64,000 nucleotides of DNA from positions 1,834,777 to 1,898,776 of the forward strand of contig CAVSZC010000005.1 of the NCBI GenBank assembly GCA_963732365.1. The letters are read 5' to 3'. The DNA comes from an uncultured Bacteroidales bacterium. Lineage in GTDB: Bacteria > Bacteroidota > Bacteroidia > Bacteroidales > VadinHA17. The translations under genes and the position numbers were made by a program. Shown here piece after piece: positions 2,037 through 63,787 of the stretch (positions are counted from its first letter, which is position 1; every line of letters begins with the position of its first letter). The notes below the pieces were generated by a model, which saw only the letters and a program-made list of their open reading frames with translations, was not told the DNA's origin and searched no databases.

Positions 2037-3602
2037 TTAGTTTTCTGTCTCCTGTCTTATTAAATCAAGATCATGAAAATCAAAGCTGAAATCTGTGAGA
2101 GGGGAGATCTCCTCCATTTTAAAGCCTGCCGGCCTGCCGTTCCTGTCAAGGGAGAATACCGCAAATGCGTCAGCATCCAGGCTCCTGTCGTCCCATCTGA
2201 CAATGAATGTATTGCCGGTATAGTAAATCATCTCTCCCCTCATTTTGGGTGACTTCACCGATCTGAAGCGCAACTTTCCCTCAACAGAGGATATCAGAAT
2301 GTCGCCGAACCAGATGTCAGTGTAGGTGCCGGTAAAGAGGTCATGATTTATTGCCGGACCGCTTTTTTTCTGCTGTTCTGCAATCTTATTCCATATTTCA
2401 CCGGTGATCTTTGCGGCCTCTGCCTGATTCTTCTGAACCTGGTCATGCTGTTCCTTCACCCTGTCTCTGCCTGTGATCCCCAGGTAACTGTCTTTTATGG
2501 TGTTAGTAATAGCTGTAAATGCTGCACCTTCCTGCTGGTTCGTGAAAACGATAATGCCGAGCTGCAGTTCAGGTATTATTGTTACCTGGGTCACTATGCC
2601 CATCAGTCCTCCCGTGTGAGAGGCCTGGAAGTATCCTTTTACGTCGCTCAGGAACCAGCCCAGTCCGTAACCGGAGAAGTGGGTGTTGTATGAAGATGTG
2701 CCTCTGACAGGAATTATTGTGTGCATGGTCCACATCTCTCTGTGCCTGTCATCAGAGAACAGTTGTTGAGCAGGATCTTTGCCATACCGGCCGCCGTTGA
2801 TCTGCGTAATGACCCATTTGCTCATGTCAGTAACATTACTGTAGATGCCGCCGGCAGAATTATGCATTTTACCTTCCTGCTTGGGCACAACCTGAAGTTT
2901 GCCGTCAACAGTGACATGAGCGTCAATTATGTTTGACCGGTTTTTCAGCCTTACATACGATGCCGCAGACATATTCATCTCAAGTGGTTTCATGATCCTG
3001 GTCTCAACGAACTCCTCCCAGCTCATACCGGTAATTCTGAAAACTACTTCACCGGCAACGACATATAACAGGTTGTCATAGTCATATTTGGTTCTGAATG
3101 ATGATACCCTGGGCAGGTAACGCAGATTGTGAATAATCTCTTCCTTCGAAAATTTCGCTGAATCGGGCCATAGCATCAGGTCACCGGCTCCCAGGCCCAT
3201 ACCGCTGCGATGTGTCAGGAGGTCAGCAATGGTGAATTCTTCAGTGACATAGGGGTCGTATAGCCTGAATTCGGGTATGATGTCAGTCACTCTGCTGTCC
3301 CATTTCAGTTTCCCGTCATCAATAAGTATCGCCAGTGCTGCCGCTGTAAAGGCCTTCGAGTTTGATGCTATCGCAAAGAGAGTGTTCTCATCCATTCTCT
3401 CCATGGTGTTTATTGACCTGACACCATATCCTTTTGCATGAATCAGTTTGCCGTCCTTTACAATTCCCACAGCAATCCCCGGCACATTGAAAGTTTCCAT
3501 AGTCCTGGCAACGAGCCTGTCAATTTCTGATGAGGTGACAGGTTGAGATAACAAGGCAACTGTCAGCAGCAACAGCAACGAAAATGAAATTACCCTTTTC
3601 AT
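2037..3602 (-). CDS. secreted serine hydrolase, beta-lactamase/PBP (class C-like) family
   Basis: Signal peptide MKRVISFSLLLLLTVALLSQ. SxxK active-site motif in ASNSKAFTAAAL. 521 aa with an extra C-terminal domain. Confidence 0.8.
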   Translation of the reverse strand: MKRVISFSLLLLLTVALLSQPVTSSEIDRLVARTMETFNVPGIAVGIVKDGKLIHAKGYGVRSINTMERMDENTLFAIASNSKAFTAAALAILIDDGKLKWDSRVTDIIPEFRLYDPYVTEEFTIADLLTHRSGMGLGAGDLMLWPDSAKFSKEEIIHNLRYLPRVSSFRTKYDYDNLLYVVAGEVVFRITGMSWEEFVETRIMKPLEMNMSAASYVRLKNRSNIIDAHVTVDGKLQVVPKQEGKMHNSAGGIYSNVTDMSKWVITQINGGRYGKDPAQQLFSDDRHREMWTMHTIIPVRGTSSYNTHFSGYGLGWFLSDVKGYFQASHTGGLMGIVTQVTIIPELQLGIIVFTNQQEGAAFTAITNTIKDSYLGITGRDRVKEQHDQVQKNQAEAAKITGEIWNKIAEQQKKSGPAINHDLFTGTYTDIWFGDILISSVEGKLRFRSVKSPKMRGEMIYYTGNTFIVRWDDRSLDADAFAVFSLDRNGRPAGFKMEEISPLTDFSFDFHDLDLIRQETEN

Positions 3603-3641
3603 TATTATCCGATATTAATTACAGTTTGATTAAGATCCTGT

Positions 3642-4517
3642 TTACTGTCTCCGGGGCTGACTCAGAACGGCTCTCTTTCTCAGATCATACCGGTCACCCT
3701 GTTTCAGCATGTAAAACAGGAATTCCTTTTCAGGCAGCTTCTTCAGGTCGCTTCCCTCGTGCGACCAGAATGATCCGTCATATATAAGCACATAGCTGGC
3801 CCCGATGACTTCAAGGGTATCTGCCCTGACTATGGCTGCAGTATTTTCGTCTATCCCTATCCCCAGCAATCCGGGCTTCTCCCTGAGTATCTCGTACATG
3901 TCAAACTGCCGGTTTCTTGCAAGTACATGCTGATCAATTGCTATGTTGCTTACATAGCCAAAACCCTCCTGGTGGTCGCCCATCATGATCTGGTTATTTC
4001 TGGTATCTCCTCTTGCCAGGAATGATCCCTGAATGGTGGCTCCGGCAGAAGTGCCTCCGATCACTCCGCCGCGGTCGAGCACCTTCCTGAACAGTGTCTC
4101 TGTGAGAGTACCCTTATATGCGTCGACCAGGTGCCACTGGCGTCCTCCGCCGAACCATACACCGTCAGCATTTTCAAGAGGTCTGGTGAATGAGACGCTG
4201 TTAGCAGAATCCCGGTTGTAAGTGTGAAACACAGTGACATTTTTTGCTCCCCGTGACCTCAGCATGTCACCTTCACTGTCTGCATAACTCTCAGCACCTG
4301 CGGCTGTCGGAACCAGCACGATGAGTGCTTCCGGACCTCCTGCAAGCTCAATGAATCTGTTTATAATTGTGTCAGACAACCTACCGCCGCCTACAATTAC
4401 AAGGGTACCCGTGACCGGGCCGGTTGTAACACTACTGGAGGCCGGGTCCTGCGAATAGGTATATTTTACCGGCAGGAGGGAGAGGAGACAAACAGCAATG
4501 ATTATTCTGATATTCAT
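3642..4517 (-). CDS. cyanophycinase-like peptidase (S51 family)
   Basis: Signal peptide. Nucleophile-elbow motif GGTSAGATIQG and the preceding GGGRQWHLVD block typical of cyanophycinase-type S51 enzymes. Confidence 0.7.
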   Translation of the reverse strand: MNIRIIIAVCLLSLLPVKYTYSQDPASSSVTTGPVTGTLVIVGGGRLSDTIINRFIELAGGPEALIVLVPTAAGAESYADSEGDMLRSRGAKNVTVFHTYNRDSANSVSFTRPLENADGVWFGGGRQWHLVDAYKGTLTETLFRKVLDRGGVIGGTSAGATIQGSFLARGDTRNNQIMMGDHQEGFGYVSNIAIDQHVLARNRQFDMYEILREKPGLLGIGIDENTAAIVRADTLEVIGASYVLIYDGSFWSHEGSDLKKLPEKEFLFYMLKQGDRYDLRKRAVLSQPRRQ

Positions 4518-48546: not shown

Positions 48547-48658
48547 GATTGTTTCTCTTCTATTTAAGTTTACTTGTTCATAAAAAATAATTACTGCCCT
48601 GATTTTTTGTTTCCGAATGGTTTGTAGACATGGATTCAATTATTCATGAGCATTAAAG

Positions 48659-48704
48659 TACTTTGAATTACAAAGTAAATAAGAATACTTTGAATTACAA
48701 AGTA
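48659..48704. promoter_or_regulatory. two tandem copies of a 19-bp perfect palindrome, candidate MarR/OhrR operator
   Basis: TACTTTGAATTACAAAGTA occurs at 48659-48677 and 48686-48704, 27 bp apart start to start. It lies upstream of the minus-strand small-protein/gpx/MarR gene string. Confidence 0.5.
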
Positions 48705-48859
48705 AATTTTAAAATAGTTTTATCCGGACAGTTTTAAATCATCAGCGAGCCACGGAAAGCCCTGCTGCTGTAGTAGGAGGGTGCGCTGTTGTGATACACG
48801 AAGACATTGCCGTAACGGCGGTCAGCAAAGAGGGCAAATGGTCTGATCAGTAGCATTTA

Positions 48860-54478: not shown

Positions 54479-54609
54479 TTTTTTGTTTGTTAATACTGTT
54501 TGTTTAACGTAATTCTATATTTTTTTCGGAAATGATAACCTGAATCTTATGGTGCTGCTGGGTTAAATGCAGAGGTCAATGAGTTATCGCGTGACTTCAT
54601 AATCAGAAT

Positions 54610-56358: not shown

Positions 56359-56540
56359 TTATTTTATAATCTATTTATTCCCAGACACCCTATGTGTAAA
56401 CTTACAGTCCTTTGATGTAATCAAAAATTGGAAGATAGTCCATTTTTGATGTTGCTGACTCCGGTTACAAAACTGTCTTGCGTGCCGGAGCCCGGGCACA
56501 CCTTGCGACAAACCTGTTAATATTATTGACCGTGTTATGT

Positions 56541-57605
56541 TTAGAACTTGCTTTTATTGTCTTTAAAATAGGTTTTAATCATCTTTCCGAAGGCTTTGTC
56601 TTTTCTTCGTTTTTCTGAGACAGACGCCTGAAACCATTCTTGTTCTTTCTGAATTTTTTGATAATTATCATAGGAATCTTTGTCGATAGTTCCATTGTTC
56701 AGTGCGTCAATAACGGCACATCCGGCTTCATTAATGTGTTTACAGTCAGAAAATTTGCAATTTATTGCGATGCTAACGATCTCCTGAAATGTCGTTATGA
56801 TCCCCTCCGTATTATCTGTCATGCCCAGTTCCTTCATTCCCGGGGTGTCAATAATGATACCTCCATTTTCCAGAACAAATAATTCACGATGATCAGTGGT
56901 ATGCCTTCCCTTGTTGGTGCTCAGACTTATTTGTCCTGTTTTTAATACGTTCTTTTTCAGGAGGTTATTGATCAAGGTTGATTTGCCAACGCCCGAGGAG
57001 CCAACGACGCAATATGTTTTTCCTTTTTGTATGAAATCCAATAACTGGTCAAGCCCTTTCAGAGTCATGTTACTAAGCTGGATATACTTAACTTTTTTGT
57101 CTCTTTTTTCAAGGGTGCTGATTGCTTCCTGAATATCATTTTCGGTGGATAAATCAATCTTGCTAATTACCAGAACCGGCTCAATATTAGCTGAATAACA
57201 TATAGCCAGGTATCTTTCAAGCCGGTTTATGCTGAAATTATTGTTTATAGCCTGAACAATAAACGCAACGTCAATATTTGCAGAAATGATCTGAGTCTCA
57301 CCAAATTTGCCCACAGCCTGTCTTTCAAGTACTGATTTTCTGGGAAGTATTTTATGAATAATTGCCTGATGCGAGTCATAGGTTGTCATTGCCACCCAGT
57401 CACCGACAGCAGGAAAATCAGTTCTTGATTTTGCTGCAAATCTTAAATTGCCGGTAATTTCAGCAGCATATTCATTTTCGCCATCTGAGACGACATATCT
57501 TTCCCGGTGTTCCTGAGTCACTCTGCCGATTGAAAAGTCAGTAAGTTGATTTTCTCTCAGACAGGTAGCGAGCCCGTCATTAAATCCGAGGTCAAGGAGA
57601 TTCAT
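56541..57605 (-). CDS. rsgA: ribosome small-subunit-dependent GTPase A
   Basis: Circularly permuted GTPase: ISKID (G4) precedes GSSGVGKSTLINNL (G1). C-terminal zinc knuckle CKFSDCKHINEAGCAV. Confidence 0.9.
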   Translation of the reverse strand: MNLLDLGFNDGLATCLRENQLTDFSIGRVTQEHRERYVVSDGENEYAAEITGNLRFAAKSRTDFPAVGDWVAMTTYDSHQAIIHKILPRKSVLERQAVGKFGETQIISANIDVAFIVQAINNNFSINRLERYLAICYSANIEPVLVISKIDLSTENDIQEAISTLEKRDKKVKYIQLSNMTLKGLDQLLDFIQKGKTYCVVGSSGVGKSTLINNLLKKNVLKTGQISLSTNKGRHTTDHRELFVLENGGIIIDTPGMKELGMTDNTEGIITTFQEIVSIAINCKFSDCKHINEAGCAVIDALNNGTIDKDSYDNYQKIQKEQEWFQASVSEKRRKDKAFGKMIKTYFKDNKSKF

Positions 57606-57631
57606 TTTTGTTCAGTAATGTAAGGATATAT

Positions 57632-58056
57632 GGATAACGATCTGGCAATAAAATTAGTAGTTGTTGCCTGACGCCGCACCTGACAGAGTCCGGAGATCCC
57701 TCCTCAGACGGGGCCAGAAAGTTGTCATGTGGCGACCCGCTCGAGCGCAGTGAGCATCGGCAGTGCAAGGACTCCTTCGCCAAGGCTTCGGAGTCCGAAG
57801 AAGGGAATTCTGTGCCCCGACGAAGTGAAGCGGAATCGGGGGTACAAGGCTGATCGGGGCAGGTAACAAGTCAAGGTACACAGAGTTTGTTAGTGGGCAC
57901 TGGCGCGATCGCGGTATAAGGTATTACAAATTTGTCTTGGGTGCAGGAACAAAAGCAAAAACCGTGACACCAGGAGGCCGCCAGCCACAGAACTGTCATC
58001 TTTATTCAGAAAATTCTCGCGGCACACATTCCAATGACATATACCGACCTGTTAGC
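57632..58056. other. GC-rich non-coding element E1 (425 nt), paralogue of 63333-63787, occupying the spacer after the last cassette ORF
   Basis: It shares with E2 the left end GGATAA-N6-GGCAATAAAATTAG, the CCTGACSCCGCACC block, GGCCAGRAA...GACCC, GTGCAAGGA, an 88-nt core (57895-57982) and the right arm CCAATGACATATACCGACCTGTTAGC. No ORF is conserved between the copies. Confidence 0.6.
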
Positions 58057-58072
58057 ACACGTTTTGTTTCTT

Positions 58073-58450
58073 TTATTCATTACAATTATAGACAAGGGAA
58101 TCCAGTAATGTTTTATTCGATGAGAATACATCTAAACTACCTGATGCTTTTACCACTGTATCTCCTTGTTGAATATTGTTGTAAAAGCCACCACATTCAT
58201 TAATGAAATGCACTTTTATTAATCTCTTGTCAATCAGGCTTCTGAATTCCACAGCTGGGTAGTTATGATTTGAATAGTCAAGATACTTTCTTTCAACAAC
58301 AGCATTTAAAGCTACCCCCTTCGTTCTATTCATTTCAAAACAAACTACTGATTCATTATGAATGAACAGTTCTGGTTTAACAAACCTTAAAATTATAAAA
58401 CCAAGTATCAGTGTAACAATGATTAATGAGTTTCTTGATTTGGGTTTCAT
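58073..58450 (-). CDS. cassette ORF: membrane-anchored protein of unknown function
   Basis: 125 aa with one N-terminal TM helix (LIIVTLILGFIILRF). Flanked by attC-like sequence on both sides. Confidence 0.5.
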   Translation of the reverse strand: MKPKSRNSLIIVTLILGFIILRFVKPELFIHNESVVCFEMNRTKGVALNAVVERKYLDYSNHNYPAVEFRSLIDKRLIKVHFINECGGFYNNIQQGDTVVKASGSLDVFSSNKTLLDSLVYNCNE

Positions 58451-58470
58451 CCACTTATTTTTAAATGTGT

Positions 58471-58599
58471 GCTAACGGTTGCGTGTATGACACGTTGGGG
58501 ATTGCGGGCTTCGTACGTATCCGCCGACACAAACGCTGATGCGGGACAGAACGCTTGATTTAACCACTTAAACCCCAATGTTTAATACACGATGTTAGC
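58471..58599 (-). other. attC-like recombination site (129 bp imperfect palindrome)
   Basis: Plus strand reads GCTAAC-GGTTG-CGTGTAT-GACACG-TTGGGG ... CCCCAA-TGTTTA-ATACACG-AT-GTTAGC. Paired R- and L-box-like stems are interrupted by unpaired bases, with a roughly 70-nt central region. Confidence 0.55.
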
Positions 58600-58610
58600 A
58601 GAAGCCATTT

Positions 58611-60515
58611 TTAGAATGCTACTTGTCTTAATACTGTCTTTCCAATTGGTATAAGTTCCACTTTTTCTAATTTGCCTGTATTTTGATTGATTAATTTTGT
58701 CTGTATTTTTCCTTTTTCGTATTTTGTTTTTACGCCTTCTTTGAATGAATATCTTTCAGGCGAAGTTGGTTCATAAGTGAAGTCAATGAAATTCTCCATA
58801 TATGTTTTCCCAGTAATTTCTTTCGCATTGATTGGCGAAGCATAAAGCAACGCACCATAAGTAAAATAATGAGAACCCGTATTATCTGTGTTTATTTGAA
58901 TATCTGTTTCAAATGAAATTTTCACATAGTCATTTGGAGAAAAATCTCTTTCAATAACTATGAAGTCATTCTCAATTCTAAATTTTTCATTCGTTTTTAT
59001 ATTTTTTGTCCAGTTGGGGTTCCTTATTTTTAGTGTGAAATATGACGGATTTGCCTGGACTATTTTAAATTTAAAATCGTTTTCGGCAGGATATTGCGTT
59101 ATATTTTCAATTTGTATTTTGTTTCCATTGAGTGTGGTTTCCAAAATATTCGGCATTAATAGTGTAGCAACCAAAGTTGTTTCGTTTTCTTTCATCCAGG
59201 AATTTTGAACAAAATAAGGAGAAATTCTACCAGCGTTAGGATTACAACACACAGCTACATCTTGATGAGCAGGCGAATATTTATAGCGAGTTTGCTTTCT
59301 GTCGGGTTCAATTTCACCATTTTTAGTGCCTAACATTTCAAAGGAATTGTCGGTTTTTAAGTAAGCAATACAAGAGTGTTGAGGATTTCTTGAACCTTGT
59401 GCTGCATTATAAAAAATATTCTCCACAACATCGCCCTCATCAGCGTTTCCGGTTTTTTGAAATAACAGGCAATAACTATCCAACAATTCTTGTAGTGAAC
59501 AATACTCGTAACCGGTATGTGTAGCATCTGCGTTGCGTTCGGCAATCCATTCGTCACCAATTGCACCACCACTAATGGTGGTTACGTTTTTAATTCGTTC
59601 TAAATATATTTTTAATGCTTTGTTTATTTCCTCAATATTGCCGGCATATTTGGCTATAATTAATGCTCTTATGTGTTCAAACGTATGTACACCGTGTGAT
59701 TTTAATTTATAGGTCGGATTCAGAATGTTTTTCAGTTGTGCATCGGCTTCTGATTGATAGGTGTTTGAAAAATCCTGATAGAGAAACAAAGAATATTGTC
59801 TGTACTTTTCATCTTTTGTTTGAAAATACATTCTTTCCAAAACATCAGTAAACGTTAAGCCGTGTGAAACACCACCATTAAAAGATGTTCCGGAACTAAA
59901 CGGGCTTGAAGCATTGATGGGATAATTCTCCATTACGTTTTCTACGGCGCTTTCAACTGCTTTTAAAACTTTTTCGTCTTTTGTATATTCGTAATAGGCC
60001 AGCAAACCGCGGTATAAAGTTGCTTTTGACCACAGTTCGCCATTTTCTGAATTGAACTTGTATCGTAGCTCTTTATCATAAATACCTATATACCCATCTT
60101 CATCCTGTGTGGTTAAAATGCGTTCAATATAGTTCTTTACCTTGTCAGTATCCTTTTTATCGTCTAATAATAAAACATTTCGTAGATAACCATCCCACCA
60201 GTTTGATTGCGTTTCGCTGTTCCACCATTTGTACTGGTCGTCACCGGCCGCATCACCTTCTTTTAGATTTCCCAAGTCTTTAGCTTTGCTATTTTCCCCC
60301 AATCTTCCTGAGGCATAAATAGGATCGTTAATAAGTTCAGGCACAATCCTGTCGAGGTTTCCAACAAAACCAGCCACATCTTTTTGCATTTGTTCTTTGA
60401 GCCACCCTGTTGGTTTAACACTCCCGAAAGGCAAAGTATTGAATATTTCGGATGATTCCTGAGCATTCAGATGTATGGAACATAATAATAAAATTGTTAC
60501 TATTAGGACTCTCAT
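58611..60515 (-). CDS. GH127-like (beta-L-arabinofuranosidase / DUF1680 family) glycoside hydrolase
   Basis: Signal peptide. GYEYCS (Glu-x-Cys) and VAVCCNPN (Cys-Cys) match the Zn/cysteine catalytic-site pattern of GH127. Confidence 0.65.
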   Translation of the reverse strand: MRVLIVTILLLCSIHLNAQESSEIFNTLPFGSVKPTGWLKEQMQKDVAGFVGNLDRIVPELINDPIYASGRLGENSKAKDLGNLKEGDAAGDDQYKWWNSETQSNWWDGYLRNVLLLDDKKDTDKVKNYIERILTTQDEDGYIGIYDKELRYKFNSENGELWSKATLYRGLLAYYEYTKDEKVLKAVESAVENVMENYPINASSPFSSGTSFNGGVSHGLTFTDVLERMYFQTKDEKYRQYSLFLYQDFSNTYQSEADAQLKNILNPTYKLKSHGVHTFEHIRALIIAKYAGNIEEINKALKIYLERIKNVTTISGGAIGDEWIAERNADATHTGYEYCSLQELLDSYCLLFQKTGNADEGDVVENIFYNAAQGSRNPQHSCIAYLKTDNSFEMLGTKNGEIEPDRKQTRYKYSPAHQDVAVCCNPNAGRISPYFVQNSWMKENETTLVATLLMPNILETTLNGNKIQIENITQYPAENDFKFKIVQANPSYFTLKIRNPNWTKNIKTNEKFRIENDFIVIERDFSPNDYVKISFETDIQINTDNTGSHYFTYGALLYASPINAKEITGKTYMENFIDFTYEPTSPERYSFKEGVKTKYEKGKIQTKLINQNTGKLEKVELIPIGKTVLRQVAF

Positions 60516-62668
60516 TTTGTTGTCATTTTAAATATTAAATTGCCTCCATTCATTATATCCTCATAAGTAATAAATTGTTTATCGTATTTATTCCCATTTA
60601 AAAACCGGGTTTCATTATAAATAGCATCCTCAGAAAAGTTTGTAGCTTTAATGTTAAACTTTTTCTTGCCAGAAATACAAATACTTGCTTTTTCCACTTG
60701 TGGGCTCCCCAAAACAAACTCGCCATTTGCAGGATTAATGGGATAAAAACCTATCGTTGAAAGTATATACCAGGCACTCATTTGTCCGCAATCATCGTTA
60801 CCAATCATTCCGTCAGGTGTGTTGTTATGAAATTCATTGATCACCTGATGAATATATTTTTGTCCTGTTTTAGGTTCGGTACTGTAAGCATACAAATAAA
60901 TGATGTGATGGCTGGGCTCGTTGCCGTGTGCATATTGCCCGATCATTGCTTCTTGTCCTAAAAATTTATTTGGATTTTCGGCTTCAGTGCTAAAAAACTC
61001 ATTCAATTTTTTGCTGAAATTTTCTTTTCCGCCCAATAATTTCATAACGCCATTCAGGTCATATTGCGTTGATGTCCAAAAATATTGCCAGGCGTTTGCC
61101 TCTGTATAATCGCCGGGGTTATTCATTGGCGAAGTGGCCATTAGAGGATTAAAGGGTTTTCGCCAATTTCCTTTGGTGTCTTTTCCTCTGAAAAAGGTAG
61201 TTTCTTTGTCGTAAATGTTTTGGTAATAATTGGCTCTTTTCGAGAAAGTGTCAGCTATTTCATTTTTGCCTAATTTCTTTGCCATTTCGGCTACACACCA
61301 ATCATCGTAACCACTTTCCAACGTTCTGGAAACTGCTTCATTGTCTAATTTGTCAAAAGGGTAATAGCCATATTGATTGTACAATTCCCAATCGGAATTG
61401 ATGTGTGATTTGGTAGATGTTTCTACCATTGCTTTTAAAGCTTCGTTGGCATCAAATCCTTTAAAACCATTTTGGTAAGCAGAAAGAATCATCGGAATGG
61501 CGTGATTGCCAATCATACAATAATTGTCTTGTCCCCAAGCTGTCCAAATAGGCAGAAATCCTTTGGCTTTGTGATGAATGAGCATCGTTTGAACAATACC
61601 ATCAATTTTCTCGGGTGCTATAATTTGCAACAAAGGGAACACCCCACGGTATACATCCCAAATAGAAAGGGTAGAGTAATATTCTTTATTTGGTGCAGTC
61701 ACAATTTTATCGTCAACGCCTCTGTATTTTCCGTCAATATCGGCAATGTTGGAAGGTTGTAAAAACAAGTGATAGAGCGAAGTATAAAATATTTCTTTCT
61801 GATTTTGTGGAGCTTCAATAGTTATTCTACTTAAATAGTCTTCCCAGGTGTTAAGATTTTTTTGATATACTTTTTGAAAATCCCAATGCGGAATTTCGGT
61901 TTTCATATTGAGTTTTGCGCCTTCTACAGAAACAGAAGACAATGCAATTTTTACTTTTAATTGTCTATTCTTTGAGAGCAAAAAATCAAGTAAATATTTT
62001 GGGGCCTTTTCGTTTTCATTTTTGTCGAGAAGGGTTGATTTTACAAAAGGTTGGTCAAAAGTTAGTGTATAGAAGTATTTTCTATTCACCCAATTTTGGG
62101 TAGAGCAATAGCCAGAGATAGTAGTGTTGTTTTCAATTTTTACATCACTTTCAATTACTAATCCTTTTTGATTATTTTCGCTAAATGCAAACCGCAAGCC
62201 GTGTTGCAAATCCACTAAAACCTGCGCCTCTTTTTCCGGGAAAGTATATAGATGAAAAGCCACTCTTTCGGAGCAGGTTAGTTCTACTCTTACATCGTCT
62301 CTTTTGGTCAAAGCATAATAACCTACCTTACCAATTTCGGTTTCTTTGTAGTAAGATTTTTTTAGTTTTTCTTTTTTGGGATTGATTGGAAGTAACAATA
62401 CATCTCCCATTTCGTTAATGCCTGTTCCACTAAAGCGAGTTTGCGAAAAGCCTAACAACAGAGTGTCTTTGTACTGATAGCCACTAGTATGATTCCACCC
62501 AAAGTCGCGATTGTCGGGTCCGGGCTGTACCATTCCAAATGGCATGGAAGGTCCTGGAAAAGTATGTCCTGTTCCGTCAGTTCCGATAAAAACATTTACG
62601 AGTTTTGTGTTTTGTGCGAAACTTGTCGAACAACAAAATAGAAATATGATGAGTAATTTATTTGTCAT
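60512..62668 (-). CDS. GH92-family alpha-mannosidase
   Basis: Signal peptide, then VNVFIGTDGTGHTFPGPSMPFGMVQPGPDN, the GH92 N-terminal signature. 718 aa. 4-nt overlap with the next gene. Confidence 0.85.
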   Translation of the reverse strand: MTNKLLIIFLFCCSTSFAQNTKLVNVFIGTDGTGHTFPGPSMPFGMVQPGPDNRDFGWNHTSGYQYKDTLLLGFSQTRFSGTGINEMGDVLLLPINPKKEKLKKSYYKETEIGKVGYYALTKRDDVRVELTCSERVAFHLYTFPEKEAQVLVDLQHGLRFAFSENNQKGLVIESDVKIENNTTISGYCSTQNWVNRKYFYTLTFDQPFVKSTLLDKNENEKAPKYLLDFLLSKNRQLKVKIALSSVSVEGAKLNMKTEIPHWDFQKVYQKNLNTWEDYLSRITIEAPQNQKEIFYTSLYHLFLQPSNIADIDGKYRGVDDKIVTAPNKEYYSTLSIWDVYRGVFPLLQIIAPEKIDGIVQTMLIHHKAKGFLPIWTAWGQDNYCMIGNHAIPMILSAYQNGFKGFDANEALKAMVETSTKSHINSDWELYNQYGYYPFDKLDNEAVSRTLESGYDDWCVAEMAKKLGKNEIADTFSKRANYYQNIYDKETTFFRGKDTKGNWRKPFNPLMATSPMNNPGDYTEANAWQYFWTSTQYDLNGVMKLLGGKENFSKKLNEFFSTEAENPNKFLGQEAMIGQYAHGNEPSHHIIYLYAYSTEPKTGQKYIHQVINEFHNNTPDGMIGNDDCGQMSAWYILSTIGFYPINPANGEFVLGSPQVEKASICISGKKKFNIKATNFSEDAIYNETRFLNGNKYDKQFITYEDIMNGGNLIFKMTTK

Positions 62669-62700: not shown

Positions 62701-62906
62701 GCTAACGTTCGGCGGAACCGAGGATCCTGCCAAAAAACTACACTTTAGCCTGGAACTATGTCAGGGACGAGCTCATGAGCCACGAACCGTTGTGAGTGGC
62801 GAATAATGTGGCGTTGCCTCAGAGTCGCGGTGGCGCGCCGTGCCCCGCACCGATCCGTCAGCTGACGGATGTCAGGAGAGGCAATGACATATACCAACCT
62901 GTTAGC
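62701..62906 (-). other. long (206 bp) attC-like spacer E3
   Basis: Bounded by plus-strand GCTAAC (62701) and GTTAGC (62901). The outer arms can pair: GCTAAC + GTT + GG with bulges, then TGCC/GGCA. The right arm GCAATGACATATACCAACCTGTTAGC is shared with E1 and E2. Confidence 0.4.
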
Positions 62907-62916
62907 CGTAGGCTGT

Positions 62917-63294
62917 TTATTCTTTTGCGAATTCAATTAATTCAATTGGTGCTCCATTGTGTTCAATCATGGCAACCCTCACTCCATTACTTGGACTATT
63001 TGTTTGAGTTAAGATATTAAATTGGTGTATTTTGAGTTCCAAATCAAGATTCTCCACTTCAAAAGCAACATGAGGCACTTTTTGAATTAACGAGTTAATT
63101 GGCGAGTTTTTTTCAAATCGCATCCATTCTATACCGAATGGTGATGATGGAAAGCCAGAAGAATAAAATTTAAACTGGGGAAGATAATCCTCATTAGGCA
63201 TTTTTTCAGTAGTAGGAATTCCAATATGGTGGAATTTCCATCCCCATTTGACAATTGCTTCAGGAGGTTCAAAATCTTGCCTAATTTTTTTCAT
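62917..63294 (-). CDS. cassette ORF: VOC (glyoxalase/bleomycin-resistance/dioxygenase) family protein
   Basis: The roughly 125-aa protein (FHHIGIPT..., HVAFEV...) has a VOC-like pattern. The ATG at 63294 is preferred, because the track start at 63330 runs into the sequence conserved between E1 and E2. Confidence 0.6.
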   Translation of the reverse strand: MKKIRQDFEPPEAIVKWGWKFHHIGIPTTEKMPNEDYLPQFKFYSSGFPSSPFGIEWMRFEKNSPINSLIQKVPHVAFEVENLDLELKIHQFNILTQTNSPSNGVRVAMIEHNGAPIELIEFAKE

Positions 63295-63332
63295 GATTAT
63301 AGATATATATGGTTGTGAAATCCGAAGCATGC

Positions 63333-63787
63333 GGATAATTGCCCGGCAATAAAATTAGCAGGTGTTACCTGACCCCGCACCGGATTGAATCCCGGTACCC
63401 GCCAGCAGCAGGCGGGCCAGGAAACTGTCACGTCGAAGACCCTGACTGAGCGAAGCGAACGTCATGGGGTGCAAGGAGGGTACGGCGGGTTTTTTGCCAT
63501 TCAGTTACAAAGTTAGTTAAGCATTACGCGTGTCGCGGTACAACTTTGATCGGAGCCGCGAATTTATCCCCGGTTATATAGCTTATGGAGGGCACTGGAA
63601 CGATCGCGGTATAAGGTATTACAAATTTGTCTTGGGTGCAGGAACAAAAGCAAAAACCGTGACACCAGGAGGCCGCCCCTGACGGTATCGTCAGGGGCAG
63701 GCCGCACCGCTGACCACTTAACGGTCCTCTTTAGCTAGAAAGTTCTCGCGGTGCGGAAAAGCCAATGACATATACCGACCTGTTAGC
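63333..63787. other. GC-rich non-coding element E2 (455 nt), paralogue of 57632-58056
   Basis: Same modular layout as E1, with core 63590-63677. Contains local hairpins CCGG-ATTGAATC-CCGG, CCCGCC-AGCAGCA-GGCGGG and CCCCTGACGGTATCGTCAGGGG. No ORF of 60 aa or more on either strand. Confidence 0.6.

Follow-up and report, generated by a model that had tools for sequence, protein, structure and literature searches.

The attC sites of integrons are usually quoted as 57-141 bp in length overall, and group IIC-attC introns and IS1111-attC elements are precedents for mobile DNA that targets them. Xer recombinases act on double-stranded sites of ~28 bp with two 11-bp arms, and dif modules are not known to form long arrays of co-oriented small open reading frames (ORFs). 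The variable terminal structures of published attC sites measure 20-100 nt (PMC4889954). For the Bacteroidetes an earlier survey recovered only In0 elements, that is, an integron integrase with no attC (PMC9024848), and a later survey added one complete integron, that of Salinibacter ruber. Here we describe E1 (57632-58056, + strand), a 425-nt element in a cassette array of an uncultured Bacteroidales bacterium. It lies in a 64,000-nt stretch of contig CAVSZC010000005.1, hereafter the window, in which positions are counted from the first letter and the + strand is antisense to the cassette ORFs.

We conclude that E1 is quite probably a chimeric and degenerate site, derived from two families of giant cassette recombination sites of the attC type, which we call A and B. 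The members of these families covary at their arms and in internal helices, prefer the ORF-antisense strand and sit at cassette junctions, and a recombinase gene, where one is in view, heads their arrays; it is for these reasons that we read them as giant attC-like sites. The interior of E1 is shared with more than 200 elements that stand at attC positions and have covarying terminal arms, which bears out one of two options offered in an earlier note on this DNA, that of a giant attC variant. The other option, a mobile or structured-RNA element targeting attC, fares badly, as Rfam holds no match to E1 and its ends are cassette junctions and do not lie inside an attC. No description of giant attC sites, or of the pairing of such arrays with the recombinase described below, was found in the literature searched, where the site family behind E1 thus appears to be undescribed; in that sense the earlier note's phrase 'unassigned family' still holds.

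E1 and its two families of relatives

The earlier note had presented E1 as a G+C-rich, non-coding element that fills an attC position and has one paralogue nearby, and each of these points stood up to analysis. The G+C content of E1 is 52.9% and that of the paralogue, E2 (63333-63787, + strand; 455 nt), is 53.2%, against 31.2% for the adjoining cassette; the counts given for two 60-nt lines, 38/60 at 57721-57780 and 16/60 at 59101-59160, were exact, and the end sequences quoted for E1, CCAATGACATATACCGACCTGTTAGC (58031-58056) and GGCAATAAAATTAG (57644-57657), lie at those coordinates. E1 and E2 align over their full length with 79% column identity, far above chance. An 88-nt block (57895-57982, + strand, in E1) is 98% identical between them and the 26-nt right arm is identical, while the remainder outside the block is ~70% identical; the variable parts differ mainly by insertions and deletions of whole hairpins. 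The ORFs of 63, 75 and 88 amino acids (aa) listed in E1 have no counterpart in E2, and stop codons are present in every frame of the related elements (standard B elements average 2.3-5.4 stops per frame), which also rules out a decayed protein gene as the origin of E1. All neighbouring genes of E1 and E2 are on the minus strand. E1 is placed between cassettes and its ends are the cassette junctions: it begins 16 nt past the stop codon of a 125-aa ORF, its other end is 26 nt from the start codon that follows, and for the two elements together only a few bases separate the stop codon of one ORF from the element and 2-26 nt separate the element from the next start codon.

Relatives of the two elements fall into two families. 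Family A was collected by an exact match to the 24-nt right-arm pattern AATGACATATACCRACCTGTTAGC (58033-58056, with one R position) in one genome per species, which gave 82 copies of the right arm in 64 loci from ~31 assemblies. These copies are 0.6-3 kb apart and lie between short ORFs on the opposite strand. The long contigs are nearly all from metagenome-assembled genomes (MAGs) of Bacteroidales or Rikenellaceae, and we infer that the matches assigned to other phyla, on contigs of 1-5 kb, are binning errors. Most copies share an element of ~240 nt that begins xxTAAC-GTTCGGCGGTATGTGGCGTTGGC and finishes GCCAATGACATATACCGACCTGTTAGC; the bases immediately outside TAAC differ among copies, and reversed ORF starts and stops abut both ends. 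The right 138 nt of E2 are up to 90% identical to family A and the right 80 nt of E1 up to 91%.

Family B was collected from metagenomes by an exact match to 22 nt of the core of E1 and E2, which recovered at least 120 stretches; a scan of viral contigs with a 28-nt core pattern found nothing. Among the matches listed there were 126 copies in all, of which 121 extended far enough for a judgement, and in 116 of these the core proved to be the last module of a second element, B. This element spans TAACGGCCCGGCAATATGGGGAGG... to ...CTTACCCATATTGTCCGTGTTA, and 101 examples could be delimited (92 of them unique, among the matches listed), with a modal length of 383-395 nt and a range of 206-593 nt. 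A and B arms co-occur in seven loci, so that both kinds live in the same arrays. Most of the sequences come from MAGs, and both sets, having been gathered by exact matching, are biased towards close relatives.

The interior of family B carries an array, in one orientation, of the motif TGTCnCGGTRCAAG, with a mean of 5.5 copies per element at ~35-nt spacing where shuffling expects 0.02 (an example is L075:704-1097:-). Copies in the window start at 57836, 57871 and 57935 in E1, where they read TC-N2-3-GGTRCA and occupy 57836-57945 on the + strand, and at 63533 and 63630. The array could provide candidate accessory sites, similar to arm-type sites, for the extra domain of the recombinase described below or for a host factor. 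Beyond the left end of many B elements, in the adjoining cassette DNA, strings resembling TTGTCAnGGTnCA were also seen by eye. A count of internal modules with the loose pattern GTCGCGGTACAA was uninformative, and the segment 57866-57886, considered as a hidden A-type left arm, was rejected as such because L084 has this segment as an ordinary module of a B element. In four loci, L084, L099, L124 and L130, the B element is cut at the same point of the right arm (...AAACATAG|CACTTATGATAAAAGCATAGTCTC..., for example from 345 in L099) and the same unrelated sequence adjoins it, which may mark an array end or an insertion.

Consensus folds and covariation were computed from 46 unique sequences for family A and 65 sequences for family B. 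The family A fold consists of a terminal arm stem, P1, a long-range helix, P3 (GGCGCGTGTTTTTGC / GCAAAAACCGTGACACC), a hairpin, H1, and a helix, H2 (CCGCACCGC / GCGGTGCGG); P1, H1 and H2 covary, and H2 shows compensatory double changes in 11, 19 and 15 sequences. For family B six pairs covary in P1, two in P2 (TACCC/GGGTA) and one in P3 (GGCGCACTTTTTGCC / GCAAAAAGTGTGAC; 15 compensatory sequences), and the region of ~230 nt that P3 encloses is mostly without a supported consensus helix. It can be seen that both families end in inverted, covarying arms, TAAC...GTTA. In attC sites the choice of strand is set by extrahelical bases and an unpaired central spacer; in the arms described here, the pairing of TAAC with GTTA is separated from that of the L boxes by internal loops that are asymmetric. 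A site of ~120 nt in locus L007 has the same arms and a P3 closed by a short loop, and the giant forms thus resemble expanded versions of a single site architecture and not foreign inserts.

The strand on which E1 is given is that on which the intact families fold. For family A the consensus energies of the + strand and the ORF-sense strand are -80.2 and -62.7 kcal/mol, and for family B they are -37.8 and -19.5 kcal/mol, a large difference in both. In the helices predicted on the + strand, cells with G.T outnumber those with A.C by 332 to 3 (A) and 293 to 20 (B). The same bias is expected of the folded, recombining bottom strand of an attC (PMC7439510), and likewise of an antisense RNA. Folds of E1 and E2 themselves, computed from one sequence or from both, were uninformative (z-scores +0.62 and -1.37).

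Chimeric make-up and decay of E1 and E2

Alignment with the two consensus sequences shows that each element is B-type on its left and A-type on its right. In E1, positions 4-96 and 210-338 match consensus B and positions 324-346 and 347-425 match consensus A; in E2, positions 4-100 and 136-332 match consensus B and positions 318-455 match consensus A at 87.7%. The switch occurs in both at the 14-nt box GCAAAAACCGTGAC (57955-57968, + strand, in E1), which is common to the two families and forms the 3' strand of P3, and the 88-nt block is made up of the last family-B module, this box and the first A-type bases. The A-type right part of E1 (57969-58056, + strand) has lost consensus A positions 129-159, which comprise H1 and the 5' strand of H2, and E1 also lacks P2 and the 5' strand of P3. 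E2 has the same join and is less decayed, retaining H1, H2 and both strands of P3.

The same make-up accounts for the ends of E1. Its right arm (58031-58056, + strand; L''/R'' boxes) is A-type, ends GTTAGC and forms the junction with the 125-aa cassette. For the distal end the earlier note had claimed that there is no proper inverse site, only a degenerate direct copy of the right arm. The first part is right in substance, in that the arms hardly pair, and the reason given for it is wrong: GGCAATAAAATTAG is the L' arm of family B (consensus GGCAATATGGGGAGG; the variant in E1, GGCAATAAAATTAGTAGTTGTTGCC, occupies 57644-57668 on the + strand), and its natural partner, the complementary B-type right arm ...CCCATATTGTC, is missing from E1. 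The distal extreme does hold an inverse core site, the R' box GATAAC (57633-57638, + strand; GTTATC in the ORF sense), in which the AAC/GTT triplet is kept and which matches TGCTAAC of L050 in position; E2 has the mutated form GATAAT.

The energies of the arm duplexes were estimated by nearest-neighbour prediction on the 32-nt ends. E1 gave -4.5 kcal/mol, E2 -6.5 and E3, a further site in the window, -7.2, against -19.3 for the window's ordinary attC; the means were -18.2 for intact family A, -17.0 for intact family B and -8.7 for random pairs of a B-type left and an A-type right end. With a B-type left arm and an A-type right arm the terminal stem cannot form, and E1 and E2 are therefore expected to be poor or dead substrates. 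E3 (62701-62906, + strand; 206 nt) is an A-type site whose left arm is split and from which most of the centre is deleted; the insertion, of ~85 nt, lies at 62716-62800 (GCTAACGTTCGGCGG / insertion / TAATGTGGCGTTGCC). On these predictions E1, E2 and E3 probably no longer recombine.

The recurrence of cassettes at other loci places the junctions at the ends of the sites. The cassette between E3 and E2, with an ORF of 137 aa (62917-63330, - strand), recurs with 91.5% identity in L050, where it lies between two ordinary A-type sites, and the homology ends exactly at GGATAAT of E2, where L050 reads TGCTAAC. Eight loci hold the cassette that lies to the right of E2, and in six of them it abuts a match to the family A arm; the sites beside these recurrences include forms of ~107 nt, the standard ~240 nt and longer forms. 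A non-coding cassette is present in L007 in two diverged copies, both of which start directly after GTTAG, one by the recombinase gene and the other after a giant site.

These features suggest the following scheme. In an intact site the ends, which are imperfect inverted repeats, would pair on the ORF-antisense strand into a stem with a TAAC/GTTA core, inside which P3 and further helices would close a large, sequence-conserved interior; by analogy with attC, strand exchange at the AAC/GTT triplet would be catalysed by a tyrosine recombinase whose gene heads the array, and whole cassettes would be moved in this way. The ancestor of E1 and E2 may have arisen when a B-type and an A-type site became joined at the shared box, through homologous or illegitimate recombination with loss of any DNA between them. 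Duplication of this hybrid within the array would have followed, after which E1 would have lost further helices, and both elements, being without a terminal stem, would freeze their cassette junctions.

The array recombinase and the rest of the window

Recombinase genes were sought by tblastn with IntI1, which served only as a probe, and with the protein encoded in L007. Tyrosine recombinases were found in five family-A loci, and in all five (that is, in every locus with one in view) the gene is upstream of the cassettes and co-oriented with them; examples are L007 (851-2065; 404 aa), L035 (1673-2884) and L010 (3704-5479). The L007 protein scored 209 bits against the XerA/integron model (cut-off 220) and 198 bits against the integron integrase model TIGR02249 (cut-off 265). 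Its best solved relative is XerA (5hxy, 132 bits), with which it aligns end to end without interruption, and it has the architecture of core-binding plus catalytic domains (CB+CAT) with no insertion in the catalytic domain. In the comparison with IntI4 (2a3v) a stretch of only 26 residues stands opposite 68 of IntI4 (residues 178-245), in the region of the IntI-specific domain. Residues 1-130 had no match in Pfam; this N-terminal part of ~130 aa is conserved in L035, and its residues 1-88 in L010 (57% identity). The N- and C-terminal parts of the L010 recombinase match as separate pieces, and a frameshift or an insertion is possible there. We conclude that the arrays related to E1 adjoin an Xer-like recombinase and not a classical integron integrase. 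The two diverged cassette copies in L007, of ~570 nt (2156-2730 and 3487-4052), have no ORF and each end in an attC of ~120 nt with family-A-like arms; the copy next to the recombinase gene follows it immediately, at GAGTTAG|TTGC, which is the likely attI junction.

In the window the arrays carry glycoside hydrolases, a GTPase and many ORFs of no known kind. The site downstream of the 125-aa cassette ORF (58073-58450, - strand), which has no match in Pfam, is E1, and the ordinary attC, of 131 nt with arms that pair well, lies at 58472-58602 (+ strand). On the other side of E1 is a gene for a GTPase of the RsgA family (56541-57605, - strand; PF03193, E = 2.5e-51), the stop codon of which is abutted by a remnant of a B-type right arm, TTATTGACCGTGTTA (56523-56537, + strand). 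Homologues of this gene lie among cassettes and attC-like sites in L181 (2056-3140; 87% nucleotide identity) and L164 (3180-4256; 81%), and we conclude from these homologues and from the arm remnant that rsgA occupies a cassette position. For the same two reasons we rejected the possibility that E1 is the last site of the array and rsgA its chromosomal border. RsgA is normally a housekeeping ribosome-assembly factor, and a GTPase of this type is here found in a cassette position between attC-like sites.

Further features were noted along the window. The region 58611-62668 is a single unit of 4.3 kb between two attC-type sites, with overlapping genes for a GH127-like (634 aa) and a GH92 (718 aa) glycoside hydrolase, and is unusually large for an integron-type cassette. 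An inverted pair, GATAAC ... GTTATC, ~55 nt apart, is found at 54534-54588, in the intergenic region after a gene for an M28 peptidase; together with the low G+C content from ~47 kb on, it suggests that the array may reach well to the left of rsgA, with sites that are small or decayed. At 48652-48705, also intergenic, a 27-nt repeat, ATTAAAGTACTTTGAATTACAAAGTAA, occurs in two tandem copies that are 89% identical, with an inverted repeat in each.

Alternative explanations and comparison with known systems

Several points weigh against reading E1 as a chimera of giant recombination sites. That these sites recombine at all is a reading of sequence, structure and linkage, and their function in recombination is putative. 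No homologue of the array recombinase was found in the window by tblastn, so the link of this particular array to the Xer-like enzyme is by site homology only. The weakness of the E1 arms is an energy prediction, and the R box of E1 might remain usable by a recombinase. Among the matches listed, none of the 116 B-core metagenome copies that could be typed at the right end has an A-type right end, which makes the chimera rare; its presence twice in the window with a near-identical 88-nt block could mean that it is kept for some purpose and is not merely decaying. The attC model does not require a large conserved interior or a periodic motif and leaves both unexplained, and, as the search patterns were exact, the conservation of those 22 or 24 columns is by construction.

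Of the alternatives, the one that survives best, although we consider it unlikely, is that E1, E2 and the members of families A and B are genes for structured non-coding RNAs on the + strand, antisense to the cassettes, and that their position at cassette ends is secondary. The helices covary, the G.T (G.U) pairs are conserved on the + strand only, as an RNA would show, and the elements vary in size by gaining or losing hairpins, as large RNAs do. The strand bias, however, is equally predicted for a folded attC bottom strand, and the helices that covary in the families have been lost from E1 and E2. In family B the P3-enclosed region that is mostly without supported helices is where the 12-nt motif array lies. 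The AAC/GTT core in the terminal stem coincides exactly with the cassette junctions, a placement that an RNA gene leaves unexplained, and neither E1 and E2 nor the two consensus sequences have a near-consensus Bacteroidetes promoter on the + strand. A search of the whole window with all 4227 Rfam families at gathering scores gave no match, and a search of 57500-58600 at E-values up to 10, and of five related loci, returned only chance-level matches to small nucleolar RNAs and microRNAs.

Rather less likely again is that the chimeric sites are kept as outward promoter or regulatory modules for the genes that follow them, the rsgA-like gene after E1 and the 137-aa ORF after E2. The contrast between the 98% identity of the 88-nt block and the ~70% of the rest would fit such a role, as would the ends of the elements 2-26 nt before a start codon, and the ORF-sense strand of the block holds the sole near-consensus Bacteroidetes promoter in the elements, TTTG-N21-cAAATTTG. 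However, its -7 box is mismatched at the first base, transcripts from the putative start would have a leader of ~300 nt, and TTTTTG is part of helix P3; the same columns served as the search pattern, so that their conservation in metagenomes is by construction, and the promoter is a lead only. Recent gene conversion could also give the identity of the block, and the rsgA homologues in L181 and L164 have quite different DNA upstream.

Least likely of all, and in our view very improbable, is that E1 represents the insertion, into an ordinary attC, of a non-autonomous mobile element (a miniature inverted-repeat transposable element, or a derivative of an IS1111-attC element or a group IIC-attC intron): the attC-targeting precedents, which come from the earlier note, the insertion inside the left arm of E3 and the varying number of internal modules speak for it, but E1 has neither a target duplication nor the flanking halves of an interrupted attC and its ends are cassette junctions, which contradicts insertion, the intron and other RNA models of Rfam were unmatched, no transposon signature was found in a search that covered homologues of the array recombinase by tblastn and no other transposase families, and the short L007 site shares the arms and the P3 helix.

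Returning to the reading of E1 as a chimera of giant attC-like sites, E1 by itself is a relic of little importance and the family to which it led matters more. If the reading is true, these sites are 4-10 times longer than a canonical attC, conserved in sequence and furnished with long-range helices, which would stretch the limits of folded-strand sites, and they appear to be paired with a recombinase that has no counterpart of the domain thought essential for attC recognition, which would make them a natural test of how structure-specific recombination evolved from Xer. Standard integron detection is likely to miss such sites. A system missed in this way, with a recombinase that lacks the IntI insert and is perhaps not called IntI, might explain why the Bacteroidetes survey recovered only In0 elements (PMC9024848), and current annotation of integrons may systematically overlook the cassette arrays of a large order that is abundant in the environment.

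When set beside the attC sites of integrons, for example the species-specific VCR-type repeats of sedentary chromosomal integrons, the sites described here are alike in many respects. Every cassette has one site at its 3' end, AAC/GTT triplets are conserved in the outer inverse core sites (GATAAC...GTTAGC in E1 and TAAC...GTTA in families A and B), the imperfect inverted arms of intact members covary, folding favours the ORF-antisense strand, the junctions fall at the core sites, the sites of one array resemble each other and a tyrosine recombinase gene lies at one end of the array. They differ in length (~240 nt for A, ~385 nt and up to 593 nt for B, 425 nt for E1 and 455 nt for E2), in an interior sequence that is conserved over ~31 assemblies and more than 120 metagenome contigs, of which the search patterns explain only 22-24 nt (attC sites keep their structure but, outside the core triplets, not their sequence), and in the long-range covarying helices, to which family B adds its one-orientation array of 12-nt motifs. 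E1 and E2 differ further in that their arms are not complementary, whereas those of intact A and B sites do pair. The recombinase, too, is unlike that of integrons, having no IntI-specific insert, an extra N-terminal part of ~130 aa and an orientation shared with the cassettes.

Group IIC-attC introns and IS1111-attC elements likewise occur at the attC positions of cassette arrays. The introns have group II RNA domains such as domain V, with or without a reverse-transcriptase ORF, and a non-autonomous IS1111-attC or IS110 derivative would have ends related to a full-length IS with a DEDD transposase and the fold of a guide RNA (bridge or seek RNA). In E1 there is no interrupted host attC, no intron feature, no conserved ORF and no match to Rfam (which bridge-RNA models Rfam 15 contains was not checked), and E1 occupies the whole site from junction to junction. 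With Xer/dif, pdif modules and archaeal XerA/dif the likeness is in the recombinase, which aligns with XerA from end to end; the sites are unlike, as those of families A and B are folded elements of 240-600 nt in long arrays of co-oriented small ORFs. We tentatively propose, while holding the odds to be somewhat below even, that Bacteroidales of sediment, wastewater and similar habitats run a cassette system in which an Xer-like recombinase, without the IntI insert and with an N-terminal domain of ~130 aa, acts on sites of 240-600 nt that fold on the bottom strand and carry TGTCnCGGTRCAAG at a period of ~35 nt. The system is integron-like and not an integron, as the IntI-specific domain near patch III is required of the latter.

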